Assembly (NCBI GenBank): GCA_964187785.1 | Contig: OZ076414.1 | Coordinates: forward strand, 47,926,001-47,990,000 | Length of the DNA: 64,000 bases | Direction: 5' to 3' | Source: Amphiscolops sp. MND2022 | Taxonomy: Eukaryota | In this document: positions 877-51,220 of the stretch, piece after piece | How positions within the stretch are numbered: the first letter of the stretch is position 1 | Layout: every line of letters begins with the position of its first letter | Program-made: the position numbers and the translations under genes | The notes under the pieces: model-generated | Told to the model about the DNA's origin: nothing | The model's input: the letters and a program-made list of their open reading frames with translations, nothing else | Database searches by the model: none

Positions 877-1948
877 TGTTGCAGGCTGCCGACTGTGATG
901 GCAACCTCTACACTATCGACCAAAGTGTACCTATGGCCCTACCCGGCACATTGCCAATATAATCGCAATTGTTAACAAACTCGAAAACAATATTTGTATT
1001 TTTGCTATTAACATATGTAAATTAGTTTTACGTTTTTATGAATTTAGTGCAGTTATAATTTGACAGCAAGGTACACTGACAGGCAGAAAGAAAACGAGTT
1101 CAAATATTTGCCTGTCCAGTATATTTAGCATAGCCGCGTACGGCGTATTAGCCAATCTAGTCTCATTTATAGCTGCTACAATACGTTTACTGCTAATCAG
1201 AAAAGACCGATAAGGCCACTTGGCCTAAGCGGTCTTATTGCACTTTGTTATTGTACTGTGAAATTACTGAGTAGTTATAAAAGGACAAACGTGGCTTTGA
1301 AGTCTAATTAGCCTTATTTGTTGAAATATTGCTGACGATGCTATTATATGGAATAAAACCTGGAACCGCTGATAAACCAAACAAGCCTTTTCAATCTTTG
1401 AAACTCTGATATGATATTGGGTATAGACATAATCATAACTCAGTGAAATACATATTCTGGGATGTCATATAGTCAATTTCATGAAAAATCAACATGTAGT
1501 GTTGCCCTATTCTTCCTATGTGGAAATGAAATCGAATTTCCCGTGCGGCCATTGGCCGTATAAACCAACATGAATTTATTATGCATGTGAAATTGTTTTA
1601 TACAAAAAGTTACGCCTGTAAACATTTTGACCTATACGTCCCGCGGCCTTGCTCAGCACTTTGATCTAACCGCTCCCACAAGCCCCCGGTGACGTAATGT
1701 TGCTATTTGTAGTGATGATGAATGCTATTTTTAACCTGTAAGTTATTTATAGTAACACTCCACTATTTTACCGCGTGTCATGCCCACTTGGGTTTATATA
1801 CCCAACCCGGGCATTTGAACGACACAATTTTTCACTTGAAATGCATTTATTCAGTTGCTCTGTAGTTATACAAGTTTTGTAAAACTCTCCTACTCTACCC
1901 CATTACAGGAACAATTTCTTCCCGTAGAAACGCTTTTTTGCCTTCCAC
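877..1948 (+). repeat. E1 5' LTR, truncated by internal deletion
   Basis: Colinear with 26219-27291 (roughly 85% by eye). Breaks just after the leader start codon and joins the RNase H end (CAATTCAATTTT, QFNF). Confidence 0.8.
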
Positions 1949-4169
1949 AATTCAATTTTGTAATAGCACATGCTCCAGGAAAAAACAATATTGCGACCGA
2001 CTACCTATCTCGTATGGAAATGAATCCCAAGGAGAAACTCATCCTGAAAATCCGTGAAGACGTCGAAACACGGCCCTTTGAGGTAAATGTCCAATCAGCA
2101 GGCGTATCAGAAGAGGAACAAGTGGTCTTCACTGAAGACGATGACGAAACGGAAACGCAAATTTGGGAACTTAAAAAACGAAACCGTAACAACCCAATCG
2201 ACCAAGAAATCGTAATCCATATTGATACAATATCTGAAAATATTGTTGATGAAATCACAAACTTTACTCAGAATATACGTAAAACGTACCAGATTCTACT
2301 CGAGCAGTCCAAAAATCCTACGTTACAACAACTAAATGCCAAATTTTAGAACGGAAACTTTTCTGAAGAAATTCTCCAACAAGATGTTCGCTATAAACAC
2401 TATCTCAACAGTTTGGAGCGAATAGTCCTCAAGGACAAGATAGCCACGCGACAGTACAAAGATGAGACTGGACAAATTAAATACCACCAGATTCTTTTGC
2501 CGAAACACCTGCTGAGAGAGCTTTTACAAGCGGTACCTGGAACCGCTCACAAACATCCTGGCATATCTAAAATGTTGCTGGAAATTCGCCAGAGGTAATA
2601 CTACCCCGGAATATCTAAACATTTGAAAAGATGGGTAGAAGGATGCGAAACTTGTGCAAAAAATAAACGTGTTCCAAATAACTCAATAACACCTGAACTG
2701 TTCAATTCGTCCGAATGGGACCTTGGACAAGAGGACGCAATGCAGATTGACTTATTACCAAATCTGTCAACGAGTGGAGGTTATCAAACAGTGATGACGG
2801 CGATAGATGTTTTCTCTAGATACCTGTTCGCCTACCTGCTAGATGAGGCTACCGCCTGAAACGCGGCAAAAGTTCTAATCGACATCTTGACAAAACATGC
2901 ATATCTGCCTACTACAATCATCACGGACAAAGGGACTGCATTCACGTCAAAATTTATTGCAGAAAAAACACAAATTCTTGGCATCGCGATAAAATTAGCA
3001 ACTAATAAACACCCGCAAACAATTGCCAAGCTTGAAAGTACTCATGCCTCATTAAAAACAAACCTGAAAAGGGCCTCACGTGAATATCGCCATCAATGGC
3101 ATAAATATTTGCCACTAGCTGTGCTCAATTTCAATACTACCTACACCTCCAGTAATGTCTTCCACGGCCGATTTCTTTACAATGTCCTATATCATAAAAT
3201 TGGAGATAAAGCCAATAAAGGTTTCTTGCCCACAACGGAATTTGCAGAAGATTACAACAGAGGACGCAAATTCTCATCGGTAAAACTCAACAAAATGTCA
3301 TGCAGTTTTACTTGAAATGCAAACAGAAATATGACCACAAAGCCAAGGCTGCCCCTCTAAACGAGAAAGATTTCTGTTTTGTTTGTCAACCCAAAGCAGA
3401 TAAGTAAGGATCAAAAATACCGTTTAGGGACTACCGTTGGGATGGTCCTTACCGAATTGAAAAAGTACTAACCACAAGAATTATATCGTCCGGCGTTTAA
3501 ATACAAATAAAACGCAGATACTACACCGCATCAGACTGAAAACATTTGTCTCAAATACACCCTTAGAGGACAAATATTCCAAAAAAATGACAACCTGATG
3601 ACGAAATAATCATTCCCCAAGATGATTTACATACTATTTGATGGGAACAATTTTTTTGACTACAATTCTTCGAGCCGAGACAGGACGATAATGCTAACAC
3701 TGCAAAAAAGATTGTCATTTACGACAATGCTGATGACGACGCGGTAGAGCCAAGACCGGCCACCATTCGCGATGGCATGACTACACGAGATGCAAATGAC
3801 GTCACTGAAGCAATAAAAATGAACACGACGTAAGGCCGCATAACCACTATCCGAGACACATTAACCTTAAATGATGAAGATGACGTCAACGAGAACGCTG
3901 CAAAAGATAAACAACACAGCGAAATAGAGATGTCGGATTCGGCGACTAGCGAGACAACCAAAATATTGGCGCCACGCTTACCGACTCATGAAATGATATT
4001 GATGAAGGCACCTGCAATTCTTCTAAGAGTGGGGAGGATAAGCCCGTGCCCGGAACATCCGATAATGGAAAAAATGAAAAAAAACTAATGAAACATTTAG
4101 CCCTAGAGGAGGGAAATATAACCTTCGTCCTAACCCCACCCCAATTTTACTGTTTAATACAGATATTAG
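1948..4169 (+). pseudogene. pol: E1 pol remnant: RNase H C-terminus, integrase and C-terminal tail
   Basis: QFNFVIAHAPGKNNIATDYLSR; HKHPG...CETC (HHCC); QIDLLP, TDKGTAF, KLESTH (DDE region); final NLRPNPTPNF motif also seen in E2 (NLRPNLKPN). Many stops and frameshifts. Confidence 0.9.
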
Positions 4170-4199
4170 TCAGATATTTGAAATCTGAAAGTAGTTGAC

Positions 4200-6050
4200 A
4201 TCTTTTGAACATTTGGCCAAATAAGAATGAGCAGGTAAGAGCATATCGATGAGGCGGCATTTGGGGCTAGAAGTATCCACCTCATGAAACTTATTGGATG
4301 GGAGTTCTGTCCCACTCGCGGTCAGGCATAGGCAACTCAGCCGGAAGAGTTAAAATAAATTCTTGCGACTCCGCAGGCAGAAAGAACAATGAGGAAGCTG
4401 ACTATATCTGTCACTTGTCCAGGTTGATCCTTGAAGTGGGCAACGCTAGTGCGCAAATATTCCACAAACTCCACATACTCATCGCGATAATCAGACTCAG
4501 AGGCCCGTTGGACAACTCCACCCAAACAAATTGTTTGAAATAAAGCGTTGAAACAAAAGGAGACTTGCTCCATTGGCAACGAGACCAACACGTGGGGGTC
4601 GAAACAAGCCATTCCGTGGACAATATCCGCAGTAAGATGGACATCACGCAACATTGTCTCCAATAGAAACACAAAATAACCTCGGGCATTCGCTGCAAAA
4701 TTATCCCCTTCACTGGGTATTAAAGCTTCAATATTGTTGACAGGCTTCTGGAATTGTTGTCAGAAGCACTTCGAGACTGTTGGACCCTGTTCTTACAGAT
4801 GGCATCTATATCAGTTTTCAACTTCAAGCGATTCGGGAAGTCCCGGCCGGAAAGCAGACGGAGACCATCAGGGTATAGGTATAGCAGGCCCGTCCGATTA
4901 ACATCGTCAGGAATGCATTTGGAAAAGACAGCACGGGTTTAGAGCTTTCGCAAGAAACGGCAGAATTGTCCGTAGGTGAAGAAAGCGGCATCACGTTGTC
5001 CGGTTAAATTGCGGTCGAAAGACTTGACATCTAAACGTCACCCTTTCAGAAAGACGAACCTGGAAACCAAATGTCAATAAAAAGTCCATACTTACAGTCG
5101 CGGACGAAAAGGCTGAAGATCTCTAGCTTGATAAGGAAATACTCGTCCATCAGGATCATCCACTCCAGACTCTGTGGCTATAATACAAAACCAGGATGAA
5201 AACCTTGTGAGTGAAACTACCTGCTAGGGTCCTAATGATTATCATTCTTGTCGCACTCAAATCACAAGACGACCCAAGTCAAATTTCTGGTGTTGGTCAG
5301 CAATAATTAATATACGTTACTGAAAGGCAAACTAAGCGGAACACGATGTGTAACTTAATCGGTTTTGGACTCCTTGGACAGCTTGGGAGGGGGCATTCCG
5401 CGTCATGAAATCCGGGATGTTGTGCCATTGTGTCACCACCTCAGTGCTGAAGGCAGGGATGCTTCGAAGATCCAAATCACAAGCGGTAATTGCCTAGAAA
5501 ACAAATGTTTGCCTTTAGAGTACGACCTCAAATGGTCTAAGAACCTCCCTCCACTAACATGAACCCGAATACAATTCCCTAAGGAAAGGAAAGAATATTT
5601 ACCTTCGAGAGGTTGGGACACTCGAGGATCCACGACTGATCAAGATTGTCACTGCGGAAAACGACCAGTAATTTGAGTAGTGGAAAGAAGTCTGTCTTCA
5701 CGAAGAAACTCTCATACTTCTGGTGCATGAGGCCTGGCAGGGACAAGACTTCGAATCTGAAAAGGTACTGGACAGTGTGTTTGAAGAGGCCACACTGGTC
5801 GAGTGTCTGTAATATGGCGGACGTACAACTAGAGATGCTAACGAGATTGGGCTCGGCAAAGACTAAGGACAACAAGCGTGAAACCGAACCGAGGAAGATT
5901 CCTGGATAAGCTGAGGTGAGGGAATCTCAGCATAACTCTATTCGCTGGATGACATCATCCCGCCAGAATCGCACCGCCATATAACAGTAACCTTTGCGGT
6001 TTGTGAATTCCAAGGAATATGTTCCTTCCTTGGCCACTTGTACGGCAATG
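4200..6050 (-). pseudogene. E1 antisense cargo gene, 3' part (hAT-like fold)
   Basis: AVQVAKEGTYSLEFTNRKGYCYMAVRFWRDDVIQRIEL (6047 down), LLSLVFAEPNLVSISSCT... (5875-5579), LTADIVHGMACFDPHVL...RDEYVEFVEYLR (4672-4337), then RKNLF*LFRLSCLCL. Aligns with the E2 cargo gene. Confidence 0.7.
5962..6050 (+). repeat. 89-bp direct duplication flanking E2 (partner 22534-22622)
   Basis: GCCAGAATC...TACGGCAATG on both sides, 1 mismatch in 89. Confidence 0.9.
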
Positions 6051-6447
6051 TGTTACAACAGACATTCGGGTCGTTTTGCGTAGAATTTATCCTAACCGAT
6101 TTTGTCGGAGTATAAATACTCCTAGTTTCGTTTTCCGTTTTCTCATCGAAGTTATCTCTAGGGTTCTCTCTTCTTTCAGATTTTAGAAGCTTCAACATCT
6201 CCTTCTGAGATTCAATGAGGAGATTCTTGATCTCGGAAGTTATTTCCTCCTTCAAAGAAGCCCTTAAGTTCTCCAAGAGGCTATTTTCAATTCGGGGTGA
6301 TTTTGGTCTAGATGGACCCGTTACTTCTACGTCCTGGTTTGAGGAACAGGGGTTTTCCATTACTATTGGTGAAACAAAACCTTCACTTACGTTTCTATCA
6401 CCTTCTTGTTGATCATTCCTTCTTTTCTGGCTTCTTGTTGTTGACAT
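6051..6447 (-). CDS. Gag N-terminal leader inside the E2 3' LTR (132 codons, reads out into flank to 5938)
   Basis: MSTTRSQKRRND...NDPNVCCN; near-identical peptide is in frame with Gag in the 5' LTR (ORF 19336-20322). Confidence 0.7.
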
Positions 6448-8717
6448 TTTGTTGTAGAAAACACTTATCTTGAAGAATTGAAATTCTTTCGGAGATACTT
6501 TCTAACAGAGTTAGGCGAAAATGAGAGTTTGGCGAAGTTGAGAATTCAACTGAATTATACAATTGCAAAAGACTGAGTCCCTCAGCCAACTAAAATCTTC
6601 GTATATATACCCTCCTCGCATCATTTGATCACAACTAAAATTCCCAAATTTCCTTGAACAAATTAGTCATTTCCTGTATTTTTGATGAAAAATTCATTCT
6701 TTCCCAATTTTACGTCGACTTTTTGTCAATTTTTGAGACACGACAATCTTTGCTTTATATTAGTCATCAGGCATAATCACATCATTTCATCTCGGCGTCC
6801 TTTTTATTTCCTCCCAAGCAGGAAGTAGATAATACTTCAGTCTGTCAAACCGGAAATATTTCCCTGTTTTGCTGCTTTGGTTCGTAAGAAATTGACGCGG
6901 AGATGACGTTGACGTGAACAACTAAAACCTGATTTTGAATTTCCACTTGAAGAAAATGCTATGACTAATGTTTTCAGCCTTGGAATTTCCAAAGATGCTA
7001 GGAAAAATAGAACCAAAAGGTATAGAATTAGCAACGATTTTTAAATTGAATTCAATTTAGATGATTATTAATTAATTAGAACAAGTCAACGAAGTATTGA
7101 CGTTTACATTAGACTACTAAAGTAATTTAACTGCAACACTTGACCATTACAAAACTGGCTAGAACGTTACGGGAATATGACGTGTTAATCAGGAAATTCA
7201 AAGCGTAAAAATCTTCGCAAGTAAATCTTCATAACTCACGAAATTATAGATTGATGTCGTCAAATTAGATCAACGAAACAAAACAACTAGTCACTATAGT
7301 AGTTACAAATGATGAGGTATTTAAACGTGATTTTTATGTACAATTGAGGCAACAATGAACATAGTTATTGTGGAAAGATACAAATGTGGGCATTGCATTA
7401 GAAAAAATTTGATTATGTTATTAAAAATATAGCTTTCTCCAGGTCATATTTCACTGCTTCACGGACACGTCAAAACGACGTCAAGTTATTCAAAATAGTA
7501 TCCAAAGTCTGTAACAGTTAATACAAAATGTAGAGTAACAGCAGTCTCTTCTAGAATAAACGGTGACTTTAGTCATAAAGAGTAGGAAAACCCTATTTAG
7601 GTTATATTGTAACGTGATTTCAATCGGCCAGTACCCAAATTGGCGAGGCCTAGACGTAATCTGTCGGGTTTTTGTTCTAATCTTCGTTGAGCTCTAAATC
7701 GTCCTTAAACGTTTCCTTTTCGTCATTTTCATAATACCGGTATTCATTTCACTATAGTGAATGGACTAAAACAGCTATTTTGATGGATTTTGGACGTAAC
7801 GCGGACGTACGTATTAGCATTAGCCTTAGTTCGCTGGTATTGGACGTAGCATTGACGTAAATTTGGAATGGAATCTAGCTTGGTGTTATAGCTGTGACGT
7901 CACACCGACGTCTGATTTGGAATACTTTCTACCTCGTTAACTAGTTAGTGGCGGAATGCTGACGTCACGATTATAGTAATATTTGCATGTACCTTTAATA
8001 TTTGTTTCCTCAGCGACGCGGTATCGTCCTATTCTACATTAATTGCTGTTCAAAGTGCAATTAAGCTACCTTTCTTAGAAAAGACGTAAATGTTTCGGCG
8101 TGCCATCTCAATGTATTTTCTAGTTTAGATCTGATTGATGTTCTTTCCCGATTGACGACTTTGGTAATGTTTTCGTTTAGATCGGTCTATGGTCTTTGTT
8201 TCAAGACGTATTCTTAAATAAGTTTTCAGGTGGCGAATGTTTCTATTCTGACGTGATAAAAGCGTCCTGCCGGAAGTGTATGAAATCATTTTGGTTCATT
8301 CTAGTTTCTGTTCTCTTTTCCTTTTAAACTTTACGTAAGTTAGACGAACGTTTTCGTATTTCCAGTCACAGTTTATTCAAGATTGGGTTTAAAGTTTTCA
8401 AGTTAGTAGTTGAAATACCATTTGGGGAATCGCAGGCTGCACCCATGGCCTCTTCCGATCCCCACTCGTCTGCAATGGCAACCCAGACCGGGAGCGGGCT
8501 GTGACAGGGCCACTCCTCTGGGGAAAACACCTGGCTGTCTTGGCAAAAACATTAGTGGAGGAGGCCTCGTTTCAGTATCTTCCGGGTCGTCAAAGCTGCG
8601 TCTCACTTCGAGATCGTTTAGTGGGCTTGCAGGACCGAAGTTAATCTTCCTGAGGGTTCCTGGGGGCGTGATGAAATATAATATAATGAGGAATCTTCTT
8701 GATGCACCTTTTCGACA
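6051..8717 (-). repeat. E2 3' LTR
   Basis: Minus strand reads TGTCGAAAAGG...TGTTGTAACA. Colinear with 19785-22454 (2-4 differences per spot-checked 60-mer). The upstream purine tract is weak (GACGAAAGCA), so the 8717 boundary is partly inferred. Confidence 0.8.
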
Positions 8718-9053
8718 TGCTTTCGTCGGGACTTTCAGGGCTGTCTGGAATTTCTTCACTCGCTTGTGCTTCGTCGTTCTCTTCTTGTTGTGGGTGAGAC
8801 TTAGAATCGATGGAGGCCAGACTCGAGTTCAGTTTTATTTTTTGTAGCTTGCTTCAAGCGAGTCTGCAGACACATCAAAATATTCTTCCTCGTCGGCTAC
8901 AGCTTCTGCGGAGGACAGGGAATTTTCCAGTATCACCCTGTAATTGGGTATTGCCTCTCTAGGAAGAGGGGTTGAAGATCTTTCCACAAGATCTCTTTCG
9001 TCTTCACTCGACGAAATGTCAATTAAGTCATAGACGTTTTTGAGGGAGTTCAT
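8403..9053 (-). pseudogene. E2 sense accessory ORF straddling the 3' LTR start
   Basis: Acidic MNSLKNVYDLIDISSSEDE... and EENDEAQASEEIPDSPESPDE, then YFITPP...GCHCRRVGIGRGHGCSLRFP, which is preserved in both LTRs. Frameshifted. Confidence 0.55.
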
Positions 9054-9099
9054 TTTGCGTCGTCGCTGCTGAGTCGTATGTTACAGGGCTGCTGAATTT

Positions 9100-9470
9100 T
9101 TCTTTTGATTGTTCCACAATGAATTTGAGATCAATAAGGACTAAGGAGAATATTGGGATGAATCCCTCCATTCTGATTGGTTGAACAATCATTTTAATCC
9201 TTTTTAATCATCAGGTGTTGACGTTATGTCAACGTCGCTTTTTATTGGCTGCAAATTAAATTGTTTCGCTCAGCCAAGTTTGTCAACGTTATGCTGACGT
9301 CATTTTCGCTAGCTTAGCTAACTTTTGTTTTGTCACCGTTATGATGACGTCATTGTAGATCATAGGATTAGTTTTCTAACCTTAATGACCTTTTGCCGAC
9401 GTTATGTCGACGCCAATTTCGTTGGTGATTAGCCAACTTTAGGTTTTGTCACCGTTATGATGACGTCAAT
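9100..9470. promoter_or_regulatory. Putative bidirectional promoter between the divergent E2 accessory genes
   Basis: TGACGTCA at 9295, 9345 and 9461; repeated TTTTGTCACCGTTATGATGACGTCA; ATTGG (reverse CCAAT) boxes; lies between ORFs pointing away on both sides. Confidence 0.5.
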
Positions 9471-9759
9471 TTTTGGTTGTTGTTTTCATCTTCAGGTTTT
9501 GTTTTCAGATTCTGAGCTATTTCACAATCGACTCACGTCCCACTGTTTCTTCTATTGATCCCGGTGCCCAGAGCGGTAATGAATCACATTGTGTGTTCTC
9601 GGAGAGAGACGTGCGTCAGAGTGACGCAGACGACATTCGCCCACGGGTTGTTGGTAAGAACTTCATTCCCTGATCCATTAAGCTTTTGTGAATAATACTA
9701 CTATCAGATAGGCCTTTTCTGTTTCTTATTTTCACAGCTTAGATTTTCTTGAGGCGTCG

Positions 9760-12700
9760 ATGCTGGGAATGTGCTTTTCTTTTCTAGAGCCCGTGGTGAA
9801 ATCTACTCCTCTTCCTGGTACAGGTTTGGATGTTCCGCCTGTGACCACCTCTCCTGTGACGCCTTCTGCTGACCCTGCGAGTGTTCCTTGTGGGTCTTCT
9901 GCACCTGTGTCCGTTGGTGGTGAGACTCCTGTTGCGTCAGTTTCGAAGCTTGACGTTGTCTCTGCGAAATTGGTCGCTGATTCTTCTTGCGGAGGCGAGA
10001 TAGTATTCCCCACCGGAGAGAAAGATGACGTCTTTGGGACGGAATCTTCGAGAGCTGGGATCCTTGACCAGACCTCCAGCTCACCTCAATTGACTCCTTT
10101 CTTGACTGGATTCGGGAAAGCATTCCCTGGACTGACGCCGTCTGATTCCAAAAGAGAGGTAGGGTTGACATATTTTGTTTGTTCCTTAGCTATTATTTTG
10201 GTTGGCTGCTTGGTCATACATGTTGACGTTACAGTTGCGTCCGCTGCTGCAGAAAGGACTGGGACAGGCTCGTCTGGGAAGAAAAAACGTCAACTGCGCG
10301 TTCAGACTGTGAGCGGTAATGAAAATTTCTTTGTTCGTGAAAATTGAGCTTGGCCGTTAGTGTGGCACATCGAATGCGACTTTGGCTTGTTTCGTAGATT
10401 CTGGTGATTGTGCTGCTCAAGGAATCTCTGGAGTCAGTGATTTGGACGTTTTCAGGACCGAACCTGCTGAAGTTGGCCCCGTTCTAGCGAGTGAGTATTC
10501 TTGATTCTTGTCGTGGTTGTAGTCGTTGTTTTGTATCACGTTGGGTGTTCTGTAATCTGTATCTAAGTATTTGTCGGTTTTGCTAGTCCCATAGATGTAG
10601 TTTGAATGGTGTTAATCGGTAGTTGTGTCGTTTCGTAGGAATGCAAGATCTCATGACGCGGATGGAGAGCAGTCTGGAGGCAGTTGCTTTGCGCGGGAGC
10701 CCCGTCAAGAAGTACAGCAGCCGACATCATCTGCGAAAAGATATGGTGGGCGACCACCCTATCTTTAGCTTGTTTGTCAGTGGAGCTAGCAACGGGTCGG
10801 TATCGCGCTTTCACTGCATGATCTGCAAACGTGATGTTTCCATGTTGTCACGTGGGGCGAGGGAGTTCCTCCGCCATTAATCCGGCGATCGCCACTGGTC
10901 TCGAGATGTGGCATACCGGGTCCAGCAAGGTCTGCCAGTTTTTGACCAGCTCATGAAACCCCTAGAGTTGACGTCAAAGGAGCGAGCGGCATACCTAAGT
11001 CAAGATGTAGTGGATAAGGACGAGGGATTCAGTTTCCCTGAGGACCTGCTGCCGGCGTGCACTCGGGTAGATTCCACGATTCCCCTGCTCACCATGGTGA
11101 ACTGTGTCGCAGAGTTGTGTAGGTGGGGTGGCAGCTACACCTTGTTGCGCAAACTGTGGGGCAATTTCCGTGCTACTTTGGGGCGTGACAATCCCCTGTA
11201 CAGCCTCCGTTGGAACTGTCCTGAGACACTGGTTAGTAATTTCATATTGAGGAGTTTGTCTTCTTTCTTCTTTTTTTCTCTTTTCTGTCCCTCGTGGACG
11301 TATCGTGGTCGGCTTGTAAAAGTTGTGTGGCAGCTGAGTGAGTTGGGGGATTTGTGTTTTAGTCGTTGAGTTGTCGTGCCCTCTTTCCTCGGGTTCTGCG
11401 CTCCATCATTTTTTGCGTGACAGCCTTCAACTGCTACAGCGTGCGCTTTGAAGAGCATCCAGATGGCCAGTACTGCTTTGTACTAACTTGGGAGGGCAAT
11501 ACCCTATTGGACCTTTGCATCAATGTCGAGCCTTCGGGTCAGCGGGTACCCCAGTCAGAGTTGTCGTCCCTGTCTCGCATCAAAACAAGTCTGCCTTCAG
11601 CCTCCTTCCCCGTCAGCATTCGTGGTGTCAGCCCTTCGATTCTGCGAGTACTCAGCGACGAACGCAGTGACGGGCATCGTTTTGTGTATGCTCGGGAGTT
11701 CTCTGCTGATGTGTTCCTGCACTGTTATCGTGTGGCTCGTCAGGAGAATTTTGGACTGTTGGAAGTCACCACAATGGTCGATTTCTTGATGTTGCGTCTT
11801 CGCGGGGCTCTGCAGGAGCGTTGGATGGAGGACTGGCCCGAGCTCTGCCGTTGTGTGGTCGCCGGGAAGGTGTCCTTTGATGAACTGCGCGGAGTCGTGA
11901 CGGAGCTGATTTCGATTTGGAAGACTGTCCGTGAGTACGTCCGGTACACGGCCCTCGACATATCAAGAGCGAGTCCGACAAGGTGGGTATAGTTTTGTTT
12001 CAGAGTGCTATTTTGTAGTCATGCGGTAGGGTGTCGCCACCATGTGCATTTGGCTAAGTGTTCATCGTATTGTTGCTATTTAGATGCGAGGCACTGACAC
12101 ACTCGTCTATTCCGAGACGACGAACAAGCTGCGACTGGGGATGATGCTTCACGTTCTTGATCTGTGTAAGTTGTGCTGTTTTGGTTCTTTCTTTCTCTCT
12201 GTTCTGTTGTGGTTGATATTGTAGATCATTTAGTAAACTGGGTGGTGTGATCGTCGTCGTCATCAGGTTGTCGTCTAGGTATCGTGGTCTTAGTTCTCTG
12301 TTGTGTTTAGATCACTGCACTTTCGTAGAACAAAGAGCTGGACGTGGCGACTACGCATTCCATGCATATAGTGAGATATGCCAATTTGTGTACTGCTTGC
12401 TGGTTCGCAGTCGTAAGGTGTCTAGTCTGCCTCCTCTAAACGATTGGGACTCATACATGGAGCCTTCGAAACTGGACGCATTTGAGAAGGCTAGCAGTGA
12501 TGATTTCCTGGAGAACCATGAGTTTGGGGTCGCGTTGCATCGATCAAACACTGACGTGATGTGTGAATTCCGCAATCGTTGCCGGGAATTTGTGGATCGT
12601 CTGGTGGACATTATCTTGGGCCAGCAGGTCGTATCCTCCGATTTCCTGCAGGGTTGTATTGCTTTTGCCCCGAATTGCTCCTCGAAGGTGACGATCGTCA

Positions 12701-13626
12701 TGTCTTCCAGCTGTTCTCTCGGCGGTCCGCGTGCTCGAGCGTTGTGGCTGTCTCTCCGGCAGTGATGCCCAGTCGAGTCGTGAGGAGTTCGCCACATTTG
12801 TTGTCGATGCTAGGACGCGGCATCGAGAATCAGAGAAAAGTGCAGAGCAGATCAAAGATGTCACCAAGTGTCTGTTCTCTGATTACAGCTTCATGTCACG
12901 GAGAAGTCTGGTCCAGGTGCTGAAAGTGTGCTGTTTGGTGGTAGATCGCCCCCAAAGAAAAATGCCGGACATTGAGATTGATTTGAAAGACTGTGCTGTT
13001 CCGGTTGCCGTTGTGACGTCGTCTCTGAGGGGCGTCCAAAGTCTCGTGTCCTCCCCCGGGTACAAGCAAGGCGCTTTCTTCACCCAGTGAACAATGGAAA
13101 GCGTTCGCGATGCCATTGCCAGTAGTCGCGATTTCATGTCCTGTGCTAGTTTCGACCCTCGGGAGAGTGTGTCGTGTGGCGATCGTTCGTCCTTTGTGCG
13201 AAAATATTCTTCAGCTTTTGATGCTTACTTGAGCCGTAAGAAGAGTGAAGCCACGAAACAATTGCACAGTGCAAACCGACAGCCGCGCTGCGTCCTTTTT
13301 CGGAATCTGGTGGTTCCGGTGGGTCAAGTGTCTGTGGTTCTCTTCGCTCTGCTGTACTGCCCTCTCCTTCGTTTGCTGTTGCTTCTCCTGGATCTGGTTC
13401 TGATAGTGGGACGTCGAGGCAGCGTACGTATACCGCTGAGTCTTCCCTGGCTGCTATTCCTGGACAGAAAAAGGAGCTGAAACCAGTCGATAAGGAGCCC
13501 GTTGCTAAGAAAGAGTCGTCAAAGACGAGTTCAGGAAAAGAGTCTGTGAAAGATCAGGATAAAGATGGGCAGAAAGGTACAGTGCCGACTAGAAAACGAC
13601 CGGGAGCTAAATCCAAGAGCGAGTGA
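9760..13626 (+). pseudogene. E2 antisense spliced cargo gene: disordered N-terminus, BED/TTF-type zinc finger, hAT-like fold
   Basis: FHCMICKRDVSMLSRGAREFLRH*SGDRH. Phase-0 GT-AG intron 11232-11362 joins ORFs 10908 and 11366 in frame. Further candidate introns at 10159-10234, 10492-10638, 11983-12310. C-terminal DFLQG/LYCFCPELL...REEFATFVVDAR; K/S-rich tail ends 13626. Confidence 0.7.
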
Positions 13627-13911
13627 AATTTGCAACTGAGACTTTGTATAACTGCCGTTTTGAGATTGTAGTGATAGTCTTTATAGTTCTATAGTGCATA
13701 CTGATATATCAGGTTGTATTTGTTGTATGTTTGATGATTTTATTTTGCTGGAGTTAGAAAATTAGATGGTGGTAAATGGCTCCCCAGCAAAATAGTACAG
13801 AACAAGTTTGGAGTCAGAAAAAAAACGAGTAAAGCAATAAAAAGTAGAATGCCTGTAATTGAAGTTGTCAGGTCGGTTCGATCTGGACACTTGATAATGC
13901 TCTTTTTCTTC

Positions 13912-16900
13912 TTATTGAGTCGTAGTGATGGCGTCAAGTCGTCTGAAGTCAGGATTAGCGTTGGGTTTGAGATTAGGTCGTAAATTGTATTTTGCTGTTT
14001 TCCTTGGATTGTATCCAACTACTGTAGGCGGCGATTTTGGGGGAATAGGTGGACTTTCAATAGGTGGGGGGCGACGTATATATGGATTATCCTCCACGTT
14101 TGTAGTAAGATTCGAAAAGTCCGGAGACGGCGGCGCTGCGTCGTTCTCAGTTTCAAGCTGATTTTCCGGTACTTGTTGCGTCGCTGTTTCGTCCTGCGTG
14201 TTCGTTACTTTTTGTGTTTCTGCTTGCTGATTATTGTGTATATTCTCTCGCGTCTCGTGTTCGTCAATTTGTTTCTTGAAATCCATTTCCCACGAAACTG
14301 CGTACCACTCATTGTGTGACATTTTGACATCTGGATCCGGAAGATATTCGCTTGCTTGTACCGTGACGTCTGGCATACGTTGTTCTGGCTCGTAGTGTCG
14401 TATGCGAATTCTGTGAAGCGTTTGTGTATATCTTGTGCCAAGTTTTCGTATCGTTTAGTTGTTATTGGAAAGCACTTTGATCACTACATACGGTCCAGTC
14501 CAGATGCAATCTTGGAACGCAAGTTTTGTCGACTAGTTGTCGGCTTTCGCGTTAAGTATGTAACAATATTCATTGATCTTCAGTGGAGCTGCGGACGCTT
14601 TGCGGTTGTAATATTTTTTATATTTGAGGTAGGAGAGCATGATGTTATCTTTCGCCGTCGCTCGTATCTCATCAATTTGTTTCTGGATTTGCTCTGATAT
14701 ATCTGAGTTGGGCGTAGTTTTCCATTTTGGCTTGATTCCCAGTTTTAAGTCAAGGACATTGTAAGGTATTCGTCCGTGGAATACTGTAGATGGTTCGCAG
14801 CCTAGAGTTTCGTGGTATGTTGTGTTATAGTTCCTTACCGCGATTTGAACATATTTGTGCCACATTGAGCGTCTTTCTCCCGTCGAAACTTTTAGTGCTG
14901 TTTTGATTGCAGCGTGTGTTCTTTCCAAAATGCCAATCGTTTGTGCATGCTTCGTGGACGCGTGGCTAATTTGGATTTCGAGGATCTGTGCTACTTCGGT
15001 TACGATTTCTGATCGGAATTGCGACCCTTTATCCGATAGAATCAGTGTTGGAAAGTATGCATGTATTGTCATGACGTCGACAATGCATCGTCCGATTGTT
15101 TTCGCTGTGACATTCTGCGTTGGATATGCAAATAGGTAGCGTGAAAATACATCGATCATTGTAACAATGTTTTGGTATCCTGCAGAGTTTGGTAGGTTCG
15201 GTAATATATCAATTTCGAGGATATCTTCCGGGCCTAGGACGTGTTCTGTATTGTTGATCATCTTCGGTCTGATTTGGCTGCTGCTGATTCGTTTGTATTT
15301 GATGCAGTCTTCACATTGCATTACCCACTGTTTGATTCTTGTTGCTAAACTGGGGTAGTAATACTTTGATTGGCATTCTTGAATCATTCTTGTGATCCCT
15401 GGGTGTTTGCCCATTTGTCCATGAATTGCTTTCAAAAGTTCTGTAACCAGATGTTCGGGAATTAATATCTGATGGTGAGTAACTTGACCGCATTCTCCGT
15501 AGTATTTGCGCATTAGTACTCCGTCTTTGACTAAGAGACTGTTTTCATGTACTAGGAGACGTTTTGCTGTCGGATCAGTTTGCAAAAGGTGCTTGTCGTA
15601 TTCTTCGCATATTAGTTTTCTTTTGATTGCCTTGAATACTGGGCTTGAATCCTGTTCAACTCCGATGCGTGCATCTTCTTTTATTGCTCCAAAAGTATAG
15701 GAGGCTTTGTTGATTGGGATTGGAGTTGTTTCCTTTATGGCCAGCTTTATTTTTGTCGTTTCTTCGTCGAGTGCACTTTGTTTTGCTTGTTCTTTTTGTC
15801 GGAGGATTTCTTCTTCGGTTTCTATTGTTTCATCTGGAAGAAAGAAAAGTTGTTCTTCGTCTGCGACGTCAGTGGATTGTAAATTGACTTGTACTGGACG
15901 GATTGTAATGTCTTCTCGGATTTTTAATTCAACTCTTTCTTTGGGATTGAGTTCAATGCGCGACAAGAAATCGGCCGCTGTGTTCTGCGCACCAGCCACG
16001 TGCATTATGTGAAAGTTGAATTGTAGCACCTAATCACACGCGTTCCACAGCGTAGGTGGTATGACTTTCGTTTGAAAGAAGCGCGTGACTGATCTGTTAT
16101 CGGTCATTACGAGTGTTGGTAGCGTCGTTTCCCACAAAATATGGCTAGATCCTAGGAATGCATGGTAAATTGCCAGGAATTCTTTGCAATAGATAGACAT
16201 TTTCATTTGAGCTGGGGAAAATACTTTCGATCCGAATGCGACTGGGGCAAACGTTTTCTTTTTGGAGTTGATTTTCTTGTCATTGTTTTCTTCAATCATT
16301 AACGCATAGCCAGAGGCTCGAAAGCTGGCATCCGTCATTAGGACGTATTGTTGTCCTGTGATTGGTTGTTTGAGAGCCAATCCGCAGGCTTGCGCCAGAG
16401 CTGCGTTGATCGCTTTGTAATGGTCGAGTAGCTCTTCAGTGATTTTGATTTGTTTATCTGCTTTCAACAGCTCATAGAATCCGAGTAATTTTTCAGATAA
16501 TCGCGGGATGTAGTTGCGATAATAATTGACAAAAGCCGATGTATCTTTGTACTTGCTTTTTTGATTTCGGAAATCGTACATTTGCTACGAATTTTTGTAA
16601 TTTATGGTCTTGGGGGCAATTCCTTGCGGAGTGATTGTTCTTCCAAGAAATTCGACTTCAGTCACCCCAAAATGGCATTTTTCTATGGTTAGTTTGAGCC
16701 TCGCTTGTCTGATGCATTCGAAAACAGCCCGGATGTTGCGTATCAGCTGCGTCACTGAATTGGCCGCAATCCCAATGTCATCCACATATTGTGCGCACTG
16801 ATCTGCTTTGATTACTTTGTCTAAGTATTCTCTCATGAAACTTGAGAATGCTGATAAAGCGCTGCTGATAAAGGGCGAACGTCCTGCTTGCGAAGTTAAA

Positions 16901-18595
16901 TGCCAGCATTTCTATAGATCTTTGATCTGCCATCTGTAAGCAGTGGTATGCTTGCGAGCAGTCTAGTTTGCAAAACAATTTTTTACCAGCTAGGTGTTGA
17001 GCTGCGTCTGACAAGGTGCTAACTGGATGGTTATTGTTGATGTAGTCATCTGAGATTAGTGCGTTTATTTTTCGCAGGTCGACAAGTAGACGTAACTTGT
17101 CATTCGATTTGCGTTGTGCAAAAATTGGACTTGCATATTTTGAGAATGGTAGGGTCGTTTTTCTGCCGTACCTGTGCATTAGCGTCAAGTCTACTGTTAG
17201 GTCTTCTTTCAAATTGATTGGTACCGGCAAGCTTCGCGTGTAAATTGGACGCTCGTCTTTCGGAGTTAGTTTGACTTTGAAGCTGTTGTTGATTCCAATG
17301 TCAAGGCGATGGCGATCAAAAACATCATTGTATTCGAATATCGTTTGCTCGAGTTGCCTCCTGTCGTTGCCTCTGGTTTAGTTCACGGATTTCTTTTCAG
17401 GATCCGTCGTTGGATTGGCGTATGCTCTTCTTCATTTCCTGGATTCTCGGGTGTGGGGAACCTGAGAATTTCGTCACTTTGATCAGTTTCGTTGGATTTC
17501 ATGAGATAATTTACGTACATGTGGGTAACATCAGGATCTTCTAGCAGTTTGAGTGCAGCGGCGTCTACTGGTCGTATTTGTTTCGTGTCCTCGGGTTTGA
17601 GGATTTGTAGTTCCGCCAGTTTTGTGTGATTATTTATTGTATGAGGGAAATCCGTTAAGTTGGCGATTCGGATGTTGAGCTTTTTATTGTGGGCTGTCGC
17701 CAGTGCTGGTGCGACAATAATTGTTGCTGTTTCATCAAATTGTGGCAGTGGTTGTACCGCACCAGTGACGTCATTCGTGTTTGTGGTTATTACTATTGCG
17801 TTCACTGTTGTCTGTTGGTGCGGTAGCGTTTGATTTCCTTCTGCCATTATTTGGAGCGGTTTCGGATTACATTTTTTCATCTCGTCTGTCATGGCTAGCG
17901 TCATTTCGACGTGCGGAAAATTGATGGTTCCATTGGCAGTGTCAATTACTGCTTGGTGATTTCTCATGAAGTTCAATCCTTTGATAGGAAATGACGTTTT
18001 CGATAGGATGACGAAGGTATCCGTGAAAGTATATGTCCCAATGTTGAACTGAGTGTCCGCTGTGGCTATTGGTTGCTCTAGTTGTGCGTTTGCGCATTCA
18101 ATCTTGAAGGGAGGCTGGGGTATTCTTTTATGACACACTATCGCTATTCATTTTGATCGCGTTGTAGTCTGACCAGGACATGGCGTTGATGAACGCGCCT
18201 GAATCGACAAGTCCATCCTTTGTTATTTCTCCAACTTCAAGCGGGAGATAGAGCATCCTTCTCTTTTTCTTGAGGATTATTGTCGAGTGGAGGGGTATAT
18301 ACGTCTCTCCATCCTTTTTAGTGACATACTCTTTGATAGAGTTGAGAGATGCGGGGAAATCGTTTGTGAAGATAAGTGCTTGAGTGGAGCCGTTAGTATC
18401 TTCCTTAGTTTGTGGTGACGATGGTTGGTCGTTCTGGGCGTTGTCGTTGTATTCTATCTTGTTTGCAATGGTGAATTCTGTGTTGGTGAGGGGCGGCTGG
18501 GTGGAAAGGTCCATGTTTTGTTTTGAATTATCCCGATAATCTTTATCTTGGGGGTAAGTTTTTCCGTGTTCAGTTTGGATTTGTGGTCTTTTCAT
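13912..18595 (-). pseudogene. pol: E2 pol: protease, dUTPase-like linker, RT, RNase H, integrase
   Basis: LVDSGA (protease); LRLLVDLRKIN, KLDCSQAY, QYVDDI (RT); MTDASF (RNase H); HGQMGKHPG...CEDC, EIDILP, SDKGSQF, ILERTH (integrase). Broken by frameshifts and stops. Confidence 0.95.
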
Positions 18596-18747
18596 GGAGG
18601 CGAGTGCTTGTCGTCGTAGCCACTCCTCTGTTGGTGTACCATTGCACTCGATTGTTACGTTAATGACGTATGTGGTAGGGGGATCTTCTGTTGCATACGC
18701 CCTTGCGACTACTGTTTCCCCGAAGCGCAGGCGCGGCGTAATTAGTT

Positions 18748-20180
18748 TTATGACTCAGTGACAGAATTGGCTGTCGTTGGTTGGACGGGGATGTCCCTCT
18801 TTGGTTCTTGAGTATTGTGACGCTTAGGTCGTGGATCGTTGGCAGAGTTGGCTCCATTCCAACAATCTTCCGTTTTGTGTGGTTTGCAGCAAGTGTCGCA
18901 TTTAAGCGGTTTGCCTGCACTAGAGTTGGCTTGGCCATTGTTTCTCTTGGTTTGCATCCATTTATCCCTTTTCATTTTTCTACATTCTGCTTTGTAGTGT
19001 CCAAATTTGTTGCAGTAGAAGCGATACCCCTTTTTGACGTTTTGCGTTGTGTTGTCGACCTGTTTGGACTCAGTTTTTGGTGGGGCTGGTTCTACTTTGT
19101 TTAGTGGTACCAGGGTCACTTCGTCTGGCGCCCCAAGGCCGTTAAGCCTCATTTCCTTTTCTAGGTGGAGTACGATGTCGTTCTAGGGTTTGTCTTCAAG
19201 ATACGCCCTATTTAGTATTTTCTTTACGTGGTCTGGCATTTTTGCATAGATCGACTTATCAATAAATTGTTGGGCTTCAGAGCCGAAGGCTTCTTTGGCA
19301 GTTTTTTGAAGTACATCCAGAAATTCGTGGAGTTTCTAGTTCGAGGGATCAAATTTGAGCGCATCCCATTCGCATCTTGCTTTGGCCATGGACAAATAGT
19401 ATCCGAAACGTCGTTTGAAAATCGTCATTATTTCATCAAGGGAATCTTTTTTCGTGTCTTCAATATTGCAAAACGCCTGTAAGGCGTCTCCTCTGAGCAG
19501 GGAGTGAAAATAGTTTATTTTTTGGATTTCCGTGAGACGTGGGTACATTTTGATGTTATTACGAAAAAGGTCTTCGAAAAGCTCAAATTTTTCCGACTTC
19601 CCGTCGAAGGTTGGGAGTGACGCCGTTAGTGCTTTTGGCATGGGCAGTGCAGTTCCATCATTTTTATCCGTTGCAAATAAAGTCCTTGCCACTACTGGAC
19701 GTTTTTTTGACGTCGGTTGACTTTGAGACCGGGCTTTCGTTCTTTTTGGCTGGTTTGTGGAGTCGGTTAGGACTCCTGTCACCATGTTACGACATACATT
19801 CGGGTCGTTTTGCGTAGAATTTATCCTAACTGATTTTGTCGAAGTGTAAAAACTCCTAGTTTCGTTTTCCGTTTCCTCATCGAAGTTATCTCTAGCGTTC
19901 TCTCTTGTTTCAGATTTTAGAAGCTTCAACATTTCCTTCTGAGATTCAATGAGGAGATTCTTGATCTCGGAAGTTATTTCCTCCTTCAAAGAAGCCTTTA
20001 AATTCTCCAAGAGGCTGTTTTCATTTCGGGGTGATTTTGGTCTAGATGGACCCGTTACTTCTACGTCCTGGTTTGAGGAACAGGGATTTTCCATTACTAT
20101 TGGTGAAACAAAACCTTCAATTACGTTTCTATCACCTTCGTGTTGATCATTCCTTTTTTCTGGCTTCTTGTTGTTGACAA
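18748..20180 (-). pseudogene. gag: E2 gag including the in-LTR leader
   Basis: LPTFDGKSEKFELFEDLF..., knuckles (R)FYCNKFGHYKAEC and CDTCCKPHKTEDC. Leader start codon is TTG here (20180) versus ATG in the 3' LTR; internal stops. Confidence 0.85.
19770..19784 (-). promoter_or_regulatory. E2 primer-binding site TGGTGACAGGAGTCC, probably tRNA-Leu
   Basis: Directly follows the LTR end ...GTCGTAACA; resembles the complement of Leu tRNA 3' ends (TGGTGTCAGGAGT) at 12 of 13 positions. tRNA identity is inference. Confidence 0.75.
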
Positions 20181-22454
20181 TTTGTTGTCGAAAAGACTTA
20201 TCTTGAAGAATTGAAATTCTTTCGGAGATATTTTCTAACAGAGTTAGGCGAAAATGAGAGTTTGGCGAAATTGAGAATTCAACTGAATTATACAATTGCA
20301 AAAGACTGAGTCCCTCAGCCAACTAAAACTTTCGTATATATACTCTCCTACCATTATTTGATCACAACTAAAATTCCCAAATTTCCTTGAACAAATTAGT
20401 CATTTCCTGTATTTTCGATGAAAAAATCATTTATTCCCAATTTTACGTCGACTTTTCGTCAATTTTTGAGACACGACACTCTTTGCTTTATATTAGTCAT
20501 CAGGCATAATCACATCATTTCATCTCGGCGTCCTTTTTATTTCCTCCCAAGCAGGAAGTAGATATTACTTCAGTCTGTCAAATCGGAAATATTTCCCTGT
20601 TTTGCTGCTTTGGTTCGTAAGAAATTGACGCGGAGATGACGCTGACGTGAACAACTAATACCTGGTTTTGAATTTCCACTAGAAGAAAAATGCTATGACT
20701 AATGTTTTCAGCCTTGGAATTTCCAATGATGCTAGGAAAAATAGAAACAAAAGTTATAGAATTAGCAACGATTTTTAAATTGAATTCAATTTAGATGAAT
20801 ATTAATTAATTAGAACAATTCAACGAAGTATTAACGTTTACATTAGAGTACTAAATTAATTTAACTGCAACACTTGACCATTACAAAATTGGCTAGAACG
20901 TTACGGGAATATGACGTGTTAATCAGGAAATTCAAAGCGTACAAATCTTTGCAAGTAAATCTTCATAACTCACGAAATTATAGATTGACGTCCTGATGTC
21001 GTCAAATTAGATCAACGAAACAAAACAACTAGTCACTATAGTAGTTACAAATGATGAGGTATTTAAACGTGATTTTTATGTACAATTGAGGCAACAATGA
21101 ACATAGTTATAGTGGAAAGATACAAATGCGGGCATAGCACTAGGAAAAATATGATTATGTTATTAAAAATATAGCTTTCTGCAGTTCATATCTCACTGCT
21201 TCACGGACACGTCAAAACGACGTCAAGGTTTTCAAAATAGTATCCAAAGTCTGTAACAGTTCATACAAAATGTACAGTAAAAGCACTCTTTTCTAGAATA
21301 AACGGTGACTTTAGTCATAAAGAGTAGGAAAAACCCTATTTAGGTTATTTTGTAATGTTTTTTCAATCGGCCAGTACCCAAATTGACGAGGCTTAGACGT
21401 AATCTGTCAGGTTTTTGTTCTTATCTTCGTTGAGCTCTAAATCGTCCTTAAACGTTTCCTTTTCGTCATTTCCATAAGACCGGTATTCATTTCACTATAC
21501 TGAATGGACTAAAACAGCTATTTTGATGGATTTTGGACGTAAGGCGGACGTACGTATTAGCTTTAGCCTTAGTACGCTGGTATTGGACGTAGCATTGACG
21601 TAATTTTGGAATGAAATCTAGCTAGCTGTTATAGCTGTGACGTCACACCGACGTCTGATTTGGAATACTTTCTACCTCGTTAACTAGTTAGTGGCGGAAT
21701 GCTGATGTCACGATTATAGTAATATTTGCATGTATCTTTAAGATTTGTTTGCTCAGCGACGCGGTATCGTCCCATTCTACATTAATTGCTGTTCAAAGTG
21801 CAATTAAGCTACCTTTCTTACAAGAAGCCGTAAATGTTTTGGCGTGCCATCTCAATGTATTTTCTATTTTACATCTGATTGATGTTCTTTCCCGATTGAC
21901 GATTTTGGATATGTTTTCATTTAGATCGGTCTATGGTCTTTGTTTCAAGACGTATTCCTAATTAAGTTTTCTGGTGGCGAATGTTTCTATTCTGACGTGA
22001 TGAAAGCGTCCTGCCGGAGGTGTATGAAATCATTTTGGTTCATTTTAGTTTCTGTTCTCATTTCCGTTTAAACTTTACGTAAGTTAGACGTACGTTTTCG
22101 TATTTCCAGTCACAGTTTATTTAGGATTGGGTTTGAAGTTTTCAAGTTAGTGGTTGAAATACGATTTGGGGAATCGCAGGCTGCACCCATGGCCTCTTCC
22201 GATCCCCACTCGTCTGCAATGGCAACCCAGACCGGGAGCGGGCTGTGACAGGGCCACTCCTCTGGGGAAAACACCTGGCTGTCTTGGCAAAAACATTAGT
22301 GGAGGAGGCCTCGTTTCAGTATCTTCCGGGTCGTCAAAGCTGCGTCTCACTTCGAGATCGTTTAGTGAGCTTGCAGGACCGAAGTTAATCTTCCTGAGGG
22401 TTTCTGGGGGCGTGATGAAATATGATGAGGAATCTTCTTGATGCACCTTTTCGA
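19785..22454 (-). repeat. E2 5' LTR, outermost 2 nt missing
   Basis: Matches 6051-8715; ends TTTTCGA then a 79-bp unrelated filler (22455-22533). Confidence 0.85.
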
Positions 22455-22533
22455 GGTAGTCTGCGACTATGATGCTTGAGATTGACCCTTCGTTACTGAT
22501 GGCTTCTTCTACGATGAACACATCCGACGACAT

Positions 22534-24387
22534 GCCAGAATCGCACCGCCATATAACAGTAACCTTTGCGGTTTGTGAATTCCAAGGAATATGTTCTTTC
22601 CTTGGCCACTTGTACGGCAATGTCCTCGGTGCAACGAAGGAAAATGTGATGGAAGATTTTTTGAAAACAAACTCACGCTAAGATAAACCAACTCACTGAG
22701 AAATCTCGCCCTACATAGATAGTGAGGTAATACATACTGTGAGGTTATCAGCTCTCCAATCGAAGTCGGGGAACCTTTAGTGGCTGGTGAAGCAAAAATA
22801 AGTCTCCTCCGTGTGGCATAAAAAGCCCATAAAAAGAGATTTCAGTCGTCTTCCTTAACTAGTCCAGGCTTGACGATCCCCCCAATGTGGCCATGTAATC
22901 GTTATAGAAAAGGAAACTGTCTCCGATGTTCACGAGAGGGGCATCAATGAAGAACAGCTTCTCTTCTTCCAACTCTAGAGGGGTAAGGATGTATCCCTCT
23001 TTTCCTCGGACTTGGTGAGTCACTCTGCCCGTGTCGGCATCAAGTTCTCTGAGATGTTCGAACCTCCACCGTTGGTCGCGTCGTAAGTGTCCCTCAGTCT
23101 TGTAATGACGTAGATTCTCTCGTGCGTCTTTGAAATAGATTGATACGTTTGCTTTACATATCTGACAGTAAAATTTATACCGGTTATGGATGGGATCAAG
23201 CGGCATAGAGACAAAGGTCCTTGTCCATTGAATTCCTTCAAAATAGGCATCTTTCATGACTTTGCTTGGCTTACACAGCATTCTTCTTCGTTTACGTGGA
23301 GGACTAGTAACGACAGTGACAGGTGAATGCGCTTGGGCGAGGAACGCCAACGGCCTATAATCTCCACTGCTGTAGCTGCTGCAAGAATTTTGAGTCAACA
23401 CTCTAGTCGGATCTGAATTAGTCGTTTTTGTATCCAGGATCCTGGAAGCGGAAATGGTTGGCGGATTGGCCTCAGAGGAAGTCTCGAAGTTACGGAGATC
23501 CTTATCCGAGTTTAGCGCCCCGCTCCTGTATCCATCACTATCTGCGGCGGTGCTTTCTCCCCCTGAACTGGACTCATATCCTGGACCGGGGGTACCAGCT
23601 CTACGAGGGATGTTCCGGGATGGGCGCTTGTGCAAAAGGTTTCCTTTAGTGACCTTTCTTAGCAATGATTTCATCCTTTGAATAATGAAATCACAGATTC
23701 GTTGGCTATCGTACGCAAGATCGTAAAAATCTGCCCTCACTGAAAGCAATGGTCGCGTGGCCTGCAGGCAGTTCAACTGGCTCGTAAGTAGTAAAATATT
23801 TCCTAATGGCATCTGTTTCGCTTGGGGTTGATTTTCTCTCGGATGCAGACACCTTGGTCCTATAGAGTGCCTGCTCAGAATCACTATTCCCTGACGATTG
23901 GCGCAGTTCCTTGTCAAAGTCAGGAAAGACATCTGGGTCAAGCGTGAATGTGCTAGGTTTGGCAGTGGGCAAATCAACCCTGGAGCTGTCAAAAAGTTCG
24001 CCCGGGTCACTCGTATCAGAGTAGAGGCCTCCACAATCAGAAGTTTCGGACTGGGGTTCTTCAGCATTCTGATTAGCCACATTTGGCAATTGACCCACGG
24101 TTACCAGCAACGGCTCAGACTCGGATAATTTAGCTATCTCAGGAAGGCTCTCTTCGGTCGTTTGGGCTGGATGCTCTAACTGGGGAGTTGGAGAGTTGGC
24201 TCCGGGAGCCCGTCCTCTCAATGAAAGCAGTGACACTCTCTTCGGTAGACCAGCTCAATTTGAAAGCCTGAGATTCTGGTTGGACGTCTTTTTCTAGCTT
24301 AATCTTTTCTTGGGCCTGCTTTTGTTCTTCATTACCCTGGTCAACCACAGGATTGGTGAATTCTGACATTACCCCGTCGTTCGACAT
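22534..24387 (-). pseudogene. E1 antisense cargo gene, 5' part
   Basis: MSNDGVMSEF..., long Ser/Pro/acidic region, PPRKRRR, KFYCQICKANVSIYFKDARENLRHYKTEGH; donor GTATGT at 22737 after WRADNLT; next exon KIFHHIFLRCTEDIAVQVAKERTYSLEF continues into 6050 and below. Confidence 0.75.
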
Positions 24388-51219: not shown

Positions 51220-51220
51220 T

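Follow-up and report, generated by a model that had tools for sequence, protein, structure and literature searches.

Several plant Ty3/Gypsy retrotransposons carry an additional open reading frame (ORF) that runs antisense to pol, between pol and the 3' long terminal repeat (LTR), as is the case for TRP28 (PF04195) of Retand and gene23 of maize Grande. In the accessible text of the papers these ORFs are fixed in their lineages, proposed to be nuclear and DNA-binding and mostly of unknown origin, and the word "intron" is absent from that text (PMC11963269, PMC7264820); the origin of antisense extra genes of LTR retrotransposons is likewise mostly unexplained in what is accessible of one of them (PMC7264820). 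Here we analyzed 64,000 nucleotides of the genome of Amphiscolops sp. MND2022 (assembly GCA_964187785.1, contig OZ076414.1, positions 47,926,001 to 47,990,000), hereafter the window, with coordinates counted from its first letter. It holds two nested Gypsy LTR elements, both broken, each with an extra gene (the cargo) that is antisense to gag-pol and sits between integrase and the 3' LTR. Unlike the plant ORFs, the cargo could be traced to a near-full-length hAT transposase and has conserved introns; a Pfam scan of the cargo gave no match to TRP28 (PF04195). It is most likely a hAT-derived pseudo-transposase retained as a retrotransposon accessory gene, apparently an undescribed variant of the LTR accessory-gene theme in which the DNA-transposase origin is traceable.

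Host-domesticated hATs such as DAYSLEEPER and Kat1 resemble the cargo in being transposase scaffolds under selection after losing DNA-transposon mobility, whereas the beneficiary of the cargo is another transposon, not the host, and the cargo is multi-copy and mobile. We take ZBED, ZNF862, ZMYM1 and GTF2IRD2 to be further host-domesticated hAT proteins. Coe1 of Beta vulgaris is, like the cargo, an intron-containing DNA-transposase gene between putative LTRs, but it is of En/Spm type, readily found by BLAST and accompanied by a reverse transcriptase (RT) pseudogene; its abstract mentions one further example and neither lineage-wide retention nor loss of catalysis (PMC2426827). According to the accessible text of two other reports, VANC21 and VANC6 of Arabidopsis VANDAL are accessory proteins encoded by a transposable element (TE), here a functional model although carried by a DNA transposon (PMC6719617), and the ORF3s of bdelloid LTR elements are captured genes in animal LTR elements, as the cargo is, but of env, GDSL or DEDDy type with intact catalytic residues (PMC5408684). 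The likeness to VANC and to the bdelloid ORF3s is functional or positional, and homology is not claimed. No hAT-derived accessory gene in an LTR retrotransposon was found in the literature, mostly non-subscription papers and with Repbase not covered.

The cargo genes form three families, E1, E2 and E3, with 21-33% mutual identity, E1 and E2 being colinear at 19-24% identity. The initial annotation had read the cargo as a catalytically dead hAT transposase, and profile comparison makes a hAT derivation very probable. The hAT reference subgroup was gathered with a short motif (121 loci, 80 ORFs, 36 after de-duplication); seven of eight long reference ORFs tested match PF05699, and the set retains the catalytic Asp-Asp-Glu triad (DDE) and the CxxH, RW and ERxFS motifs. 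In hhalign the cargo profile matched this subgroup with a probability of 95.6% (E 1.1e-8) over 496 colinear columns, while a reversed and 10 block-shuffled control profiles gave at most 1.1%. Without the motif columns the value was 95.0%, with E1 and E2 exon rows only and the same master 93.1%, and with four random halves 90.9-96.3%. The last exon alone also aligned in register (20.7%, E 0.0011; reversed 0.24%). A reciprocal hidden Markov model (HMM) comparison gave a median of 7.0 bits forward and -1.7 bits reversed, and only for the finger-type hAT subgroup, to which cargo identity is about 15%. The 27-residue C-x2-C-x16-H-x5-H finger of this subgroup is identical in spacing to that found in 34 cargo copies. 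The cargo thus resembles finger-type hATs (PF05699-positive, with Hermes, PDB 8edg and 8sjd, as structural model) in finger spacing and in that the finger is followed in turn by the helices, the RNase H strands, the helical insertion and the (C)F(D)P region; it differs in lacking DDE, CxxH, RW, ERxFS, a PF05699 match and terminal inverted repeats, and in sitting in an LTR element and moving with it. Finger-type hATs with catalytic motifs occur in the same genome (loci L250-L256) and are candidate relatives of the donor.

The finger had initially been likened to the ZMYM1/TTF type, a comparison that did not hold: the corresponding subgroup (Tip100, DUF4371-type) gave 0.35% against 46 sequences, although the Tip100-type profile matches other hAT profiles at 98-99.8%, and the nearest group is that with the 27-residue C2H2 finger. 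ZNF862 turned up as a weak language-model lead only, with no direct comparison. An Ac-type hAT profile (0.08%) was not above controls, and a shallow Mutator/MULE profile gave 0.12% against 24 ORFs of this genome. When ORFs from 20 loci picked by PF05699 in this genome were compared with cargo HMMs, no match was obtained; a DUF4371 search of the genome gave no match even for its controls and is uninformative. A search for longer proteins with last-exon homologues yielded none, which is weak evidence, an atlas search with an intron-bearing ORF gave no usable match, and of 108 pattern matches in a metagenome scan for E3 relatives, 0 were confirmed.

The motifs on which the initial annotation relied (finger, E1 and E2 strand motifs, CFDP and YCFCP) were all located in the window, but the range 5940..13100 given for them proved too narrow. 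The E2 cargo, on the plus strand of the inner element between its integrase and 3' LTR, spans about 9530 to 13626, and the E1 cargo of the outer element, interrupted by the inner one, lies on the minus strand in two pieces, 24100-22534 and 6051 to about 4170. Their parts are:

9527 to 10320, plus strand: likely upstream E2 exons as judged by eye, namely a short conserved N-terminal one, an S/P/T-rich one and one bearing KKKR
10630 to 11231, plus strand: E2 finger exon, with the C-x2-C-x16-H-x5-H finger and the helices preceding the RNase H core
11390 to 11985, plus strand: E2 RNase H-like exon, with RNase H-like strands and the start of the helical insertion
12084 to 12167, plus strand: putative short conserved E2 exon, kept in 8/8 E2 copies compared
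12308 to 13626, plus strand: E2 last exon, with helical insertion domain, CFCP, a degenerate C-terminal region without ERxFS and a low-complexity basic tail
22534 to 24100, minus strand: 5' part of the E1 cargo, where a disordered N-terminus precedes the finger (about 23167-23087) and the first portion of the RNase H exon
4170 to 6051, minus strand: 3' part of the E1 cargo, broken, comprising the remainder of the RNase H exon, a pair of short exons and the last exon

In E2 the finger lies at about 10815-10895 (+), strands beta1-beta2 read CYSVRFEEHPDGQYCFVLTW at 11432-11491 (+), beta4 follows at 11609-11629, GKVSF at 11864-11878 takes the place of RW in hATs, and YCFCP is found at 12657 (+). 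In E1 the strand motif at 6025-5963 (-) reads GTYSLEFTNRKGYCYMAVRFW, the version beginning RTYS being a duplicate at 22597-22535, outside the range first given; the short exons are at 5493-5359 and 5177-5094 (-), and CFDP at 4606-4595 (-). Stops and frameshifts break both window copies, that of E2 by a stop at 10878 between both His of the finger, a frameshift close to the end of the RNase H-like exon, a pair of frameshifts around 12655-12720, and a stop at 13088 that is followed by one more frameshift. Among the motif-located copies (60 loci), a GT donor follows the finger exon in 44/44 and an AG acceptor precedes the last exon in 49/49, and exons are conserved among genomic copies while introns have diverged. 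Across the same region the E3 core has 0 introns (compared at L087:5741-8356), E2 three and E1 four (loci L032 and L036), the first and last positions being common to E1 and E2. The E1 N-terminus comprises 400 disordered residues with a conserved island.

That the first catalytic Asp is replaced by T or E, as initially suggested, was confirmed: that column holds E in 46, T in 22 and D in 0 of 109 rows, these and the following rows being overlapping fragments and related sequences, so that events are not independent. The second-Asp column holds C in 85 of 136 rows; no Asp was found at either position in 100 rows spanning both strands, nor did any row have both Asp when a shift of one residue was allowed (0/100), and an intact DDE was thus not encountered. 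CxxH was present in 1/72 rows and RW in 0/52, against 7/7 in the references, and ERxFS is absent, as had been noted, with an ERxF-like motif in 1/49 rows. Terminal inverted repeats were found in none of six regions (top five pairs each), where the inverted pairs were all short and none was shared between regions; 8-bp duplications were not the object of a separate search. Because DDE, CxxH, RW, ERxFS and terminal inverted repeats are all missing, the cargo would fail as a working hAT transposase, with hAT architecture retained, and we hold with high confidence, on its residues, that it lacks transposase activity.

A comparison of folds with Hermes, which the initial annotation had called for, was suggestive: Hermes ranks high in the search of the low-confidence models, below significance, and the weight rests on the profile comparison. 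Several observations count against the favored explanation as a whole, a hAT-derived, catalytically dead protein with a regulatory role. The models themselves are weak, an RNase H-like core being predicted with a pLDDT of 56-57 and a pTM of 0.31-0.48; no fold match was significant, Foldseek with the C-terminal model and a viral fold library each giving none at E 0.001 or better, and the Foldseek list for the C-terminal half does not include Hermes. The reference set was gathered with a motif chosen for its resemblance to the cargo, and much of the score stems from the finger (alone 92.7%; columns 150-800 21.8%; 262-800 0.7%). Neither PF05699 nor any other Pfam hAT domain was detected in any cargo protein or relative scanned, and PDB sequence searches with four cargo profiles returned nothing relevant. 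For the second Asp and the Glu, the register comes from a weak global alignment (8.5%) and reading by eye. Finally, several cargo types occur on one LTR type, which argues against strict recognition of one LTR by one protein.

The assembly (1.07 Gb, 1,929 contigs) was searched for the cargo, which is more than a chance occurrence of motifs. At least 150 matches each were obtained for E1 and E2 (first-look candidates numbering 4,321 and 5,363, respectively, which are not copy numbers), and 20 loci per family were sampled across the identity range. A profile search of 1.84 billion representatives retrieved 1,041 proteins with an E of at most 0.001; among the 150 matches listed, P0045 (890 amino acids) reads uninterrupted through the predicted exon junctions and pointed to E3, whose core is without introns. 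E3 is present in this genome (P0159 at 100%, 54 matches). Since P0045 and P0039 match the local E3 at only 47-53% and 25-36% identity, the cargo family probably extends to other genomes.

The carrier shows the LTRs, short target duplication and protease, RT, RNase H, integrase order of a Ty3/Gypsy retrotransposon. All eight complete elements (3 E3, 2 E1, 3 E2) have TG...CA LTRs that are 98.8-99.9% identical and 5-bp target duplications, and in all eight the cargo is antisense to pol. In a cargo-blind sample of 20 loci, out of at least 150 found by RNase H alone and all with E2-type backbones, 20/20 had cargo antisense to integrase, one of them partial; conversely, 39/40 cargo-picked loci had an antisense integrase past the 3' end of the cargo, and the position and fixation described for the Retand and Grande ORFs are therefore found here too. 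Of 141 cargo pairs, 25 had a synonymous divergence (dS) of 0.1-2, and in these the ratio of nonsynonymous to synonymous substitution (dN/dS) was 0.03-0.25; the others were saturated or above 2. Long exons are intact in young elements. In the integrase tree (quick tree) as in the cargo tree (FastTree), every family groups as a single clade; with three groups and midpoint roots, the trees speak for co-inheritance at the family level only. The cargo is a fixed, selected component of these elements. The earlier idea that it was repurposed by a retrotransposon is supported in this respect, by selection and lineage fixation, while the role of the protein is only predicted.

In E2 the integrase protein is nearly invariant and the cargo varied. 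At 85% nucleotide identity, the cargo forms 18 clusters among 35 loci and the integrase 5 among 36, and in one pair integrase dS is 0.048 and cargo dS saturated. The near-invariant integrase with 18 cargo clusters, and single LTR types with several cargo types, suggest frequent exchange of the cargo as a cassette among E2 elements; strict cargo-LTR pairing was not seen, and such swapping fits conflict-driven diversity, not strict one-to-one LTR recognition. Cargo, sense-ORF and LTR types are mixed on near-identical integrase backbones (L013-L030, L257-L276). The sense ORF is a second extra ORF:

8400 to 9060, minus strand: second extra ORF, in the same sense as gag-pol; it diverges from the cargo and runs into the 3' LTR
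25580 to 26233, plus strand: another copy in the window; further copies at L017:1288-2124 and L028:1299-2072

It is present in 19/20 RNase H-picked loci, is acidic with Cys-bearing ends, had no Pfam match in two copies tested, and in 6/8 copies scanned contains a motif (hydrophobic then acidic residues) resembling a SUMO-interacting motif (SIM), by what we assume to be the SIM consensus; intact copies carry this motif.

A history consistent with these data would start when a hAT of the finger type landed in an ancestral element, in reverse orientation and in the stretch that separates integrase from the 3' LTR; this hAT would then have lost its ends and active site and passed down to the E1, E2 and E3 branches. 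In an antisense gene introns could persist, as the genomic RNA represents the other strand, on which the cargo introns would not be spliced; this orientation also implies a separate cargo transcript, presumably an mRNA that is spliced and starts at a promoter close to the 3' LTR. As finger, lysine/arginine (K/R) clusters and scaffold are retained, the product is predicted to be a nuclear DNA- or chromatin-binding protein, which may enter the nucleus via the K/R clusters, bind DNA without cutting it and, on the VANC/VANDAL model, oppose host silencing or activate the element. That it helps keep its own elements transcribed is a tentative prediction, in which our confidence falls somewhat short of even, and a family-specific chromatin or anti-silencing role is our best guess. 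The more elaborate proposal that this dead, spliced, antisense hAT is a family-specific anti-silencing factor, and that its swappable alleles and the SIM-bearing ORF testify to an arms race with host silencing that depends on small RNAs or SUMO, is speculative, and we would regard it as doubtful in this full form.

The same pseudo-enzyme might instead tether or import the pre-integration complex through DNA or chromatin and so steer insertions. The retained DNA-binding finger and K/R clusters, the nested insertion into relatives in the window and around L017, and the near-invariant E2 integrase with varied cargo, as expected of a swappable targeting module, agree with this role, which we nevertheless consider unlikely, since the eight 5-bp target duplications have no obvious consensus by eye and copies lie on all large contigs. 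Quite unlikely, in our opinion, is a self-limiting or conflict factor, either a repressor of its own element or a partner of the divergent sense ORF, with alleles kept by conflict: cargo and sense-ORF types recombine freely, unlike a locked pair, and the imbalance of cargo and integrase clusters (18 vs 5), which together with the pair of nearly identical integrases and saturated cargos and the company of the sense ORF in 19/20 loci would favor it, may in part reflect template switching, which alone can shuffle cassettes, or partial matches that split some clusters. An Env-like role is not favored, the gene being antisense and RNase H-like; its hydropathy is borderline (maximum 19-residue mean 1.6-1.95) and not decisive.

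Other explanations question the origin or inactivity of the protein. A non-hAT gene, in which a C2H2 finger was joined to an unrelated RNase H-like and helical scaffold, for instance of another DDE superfamily, seems improbable given that fingerless alignments keep the same colinear register and beat reversed controls, that the Mutator profile reached only 0.12% and that the reciprocal HMM signal (7.0 vs -1.7 bits) was confined to this hAT subgroup. A shade less probable is that the cargo retains or has evolved nuclease or other metal-dependent activity with non-canonical residues. The frequent E (46/109) and C (85/136) in the two Asp columns could be read in this way, and, in the accessible text on Hermes, mutant D248C still makes hairpins in Mn2+, but E572A and E572C lose every step (PMC2533014). 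In addition, the families do not share the E, and neither the third acidic residue nor CxxH or RW has been retained. As for the idea of a decaying hAT insertion that the retrotransposon passively copies with itself, both window copies are indeed broken, but a dN/dS far below 1 already contradicts it, and intact long exons in young elements, conserved splice dinucleotides, retention across families 21-33% identical and the lack of terminal inverted repeats in six regions make it extremely improbable.

With regard to the architecture of the window, the inner element, on the minus strand, was delimited by self-comparison of the window, and its LTR pair is 95.0% identical. A Pfam scan found, in the order expected of Gypsy, DUF1759, CCHC, RT, RNase H and integrase, with gag-pol split over several ORFs:

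19785 to 22533, minus strand: 5' LTR of the inner element, with TG...CA ends, then TGG (primer-binding site-like)
6052 to 8717 (start about 8717), minus strand: 3' LTR of the inner element, which falls short of the 5' LTR by about 81 bp at the inner end
13850 to 19784, minus strand: gag-pol of the inner element, with gag (DUF1759, CCHC), protease-like ORF, RT, RNase H and integrase
1840 to 3315, plus strand: remnant integrase region of the outer Gypsy element (the E1 carrier), a weak rve match
5962 to 6051 and 22534 to 22623, no strand: 90-bp direct duplication flanking the inner element, 89/90 identical

A 1.09-kb repeat (884-1948 and 26219-27291, 84.8% identity) probably represents the outer LTRs; as its 5' copy adjoins the integrase region, gag-RT of the outer element seem to have been deleted. 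The inner element is flanked by the 90-bp duplication, compared with 5 bp in 8/8 other elements, and this together with the shortfall of its 3' LTR could possibly result from aberrant integration or recombination. The gag reading frame apparently begins within the LTR and crosses the primer-binding site (5938-6501 and 19336-20322, -), which implies that the 3' LTR holds a copy of the gag N-terminus. Elsewhere, at 35728-51819, another Gypsy element is present in 7.4-kb copies arranged in tandem (97% identical); in this element (35.7-51 kb) no cargo match was obtained, and a 242-amino-acid ORF lies antisense within the integrase region (37921-38649, 45351-46079). A 356-bp tandem array of 6 copies (31204-33283), near-perfect inverted repeats of 51-112 bp clustered at 55427-55862, and a 15-bp tandem array (61084-61354) were also observed.

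While antisense extra genes of LTR elements are mainly known from plants, in this case the origin appears traceable: the disabled enzyme of one class of mobile elements would have been kept by another, under strong selection, in three deeply diverged, recently active families. In the accessible text of a 2019 review the TE-encoded anti-silencing mechanisms known number just three, each of them from a plant and none directed against PIWI-interacting RNAs (piRNA) or KRAB zinc-finger proteins (KRAB-ZFP) (PMC6719617), and the cargo represents a concrete, testable candidate for a TE-encoded anti-silencing factor. Its invisibility to Pfam and PDB sequence searches implies that similar cases would escape standard annotation.
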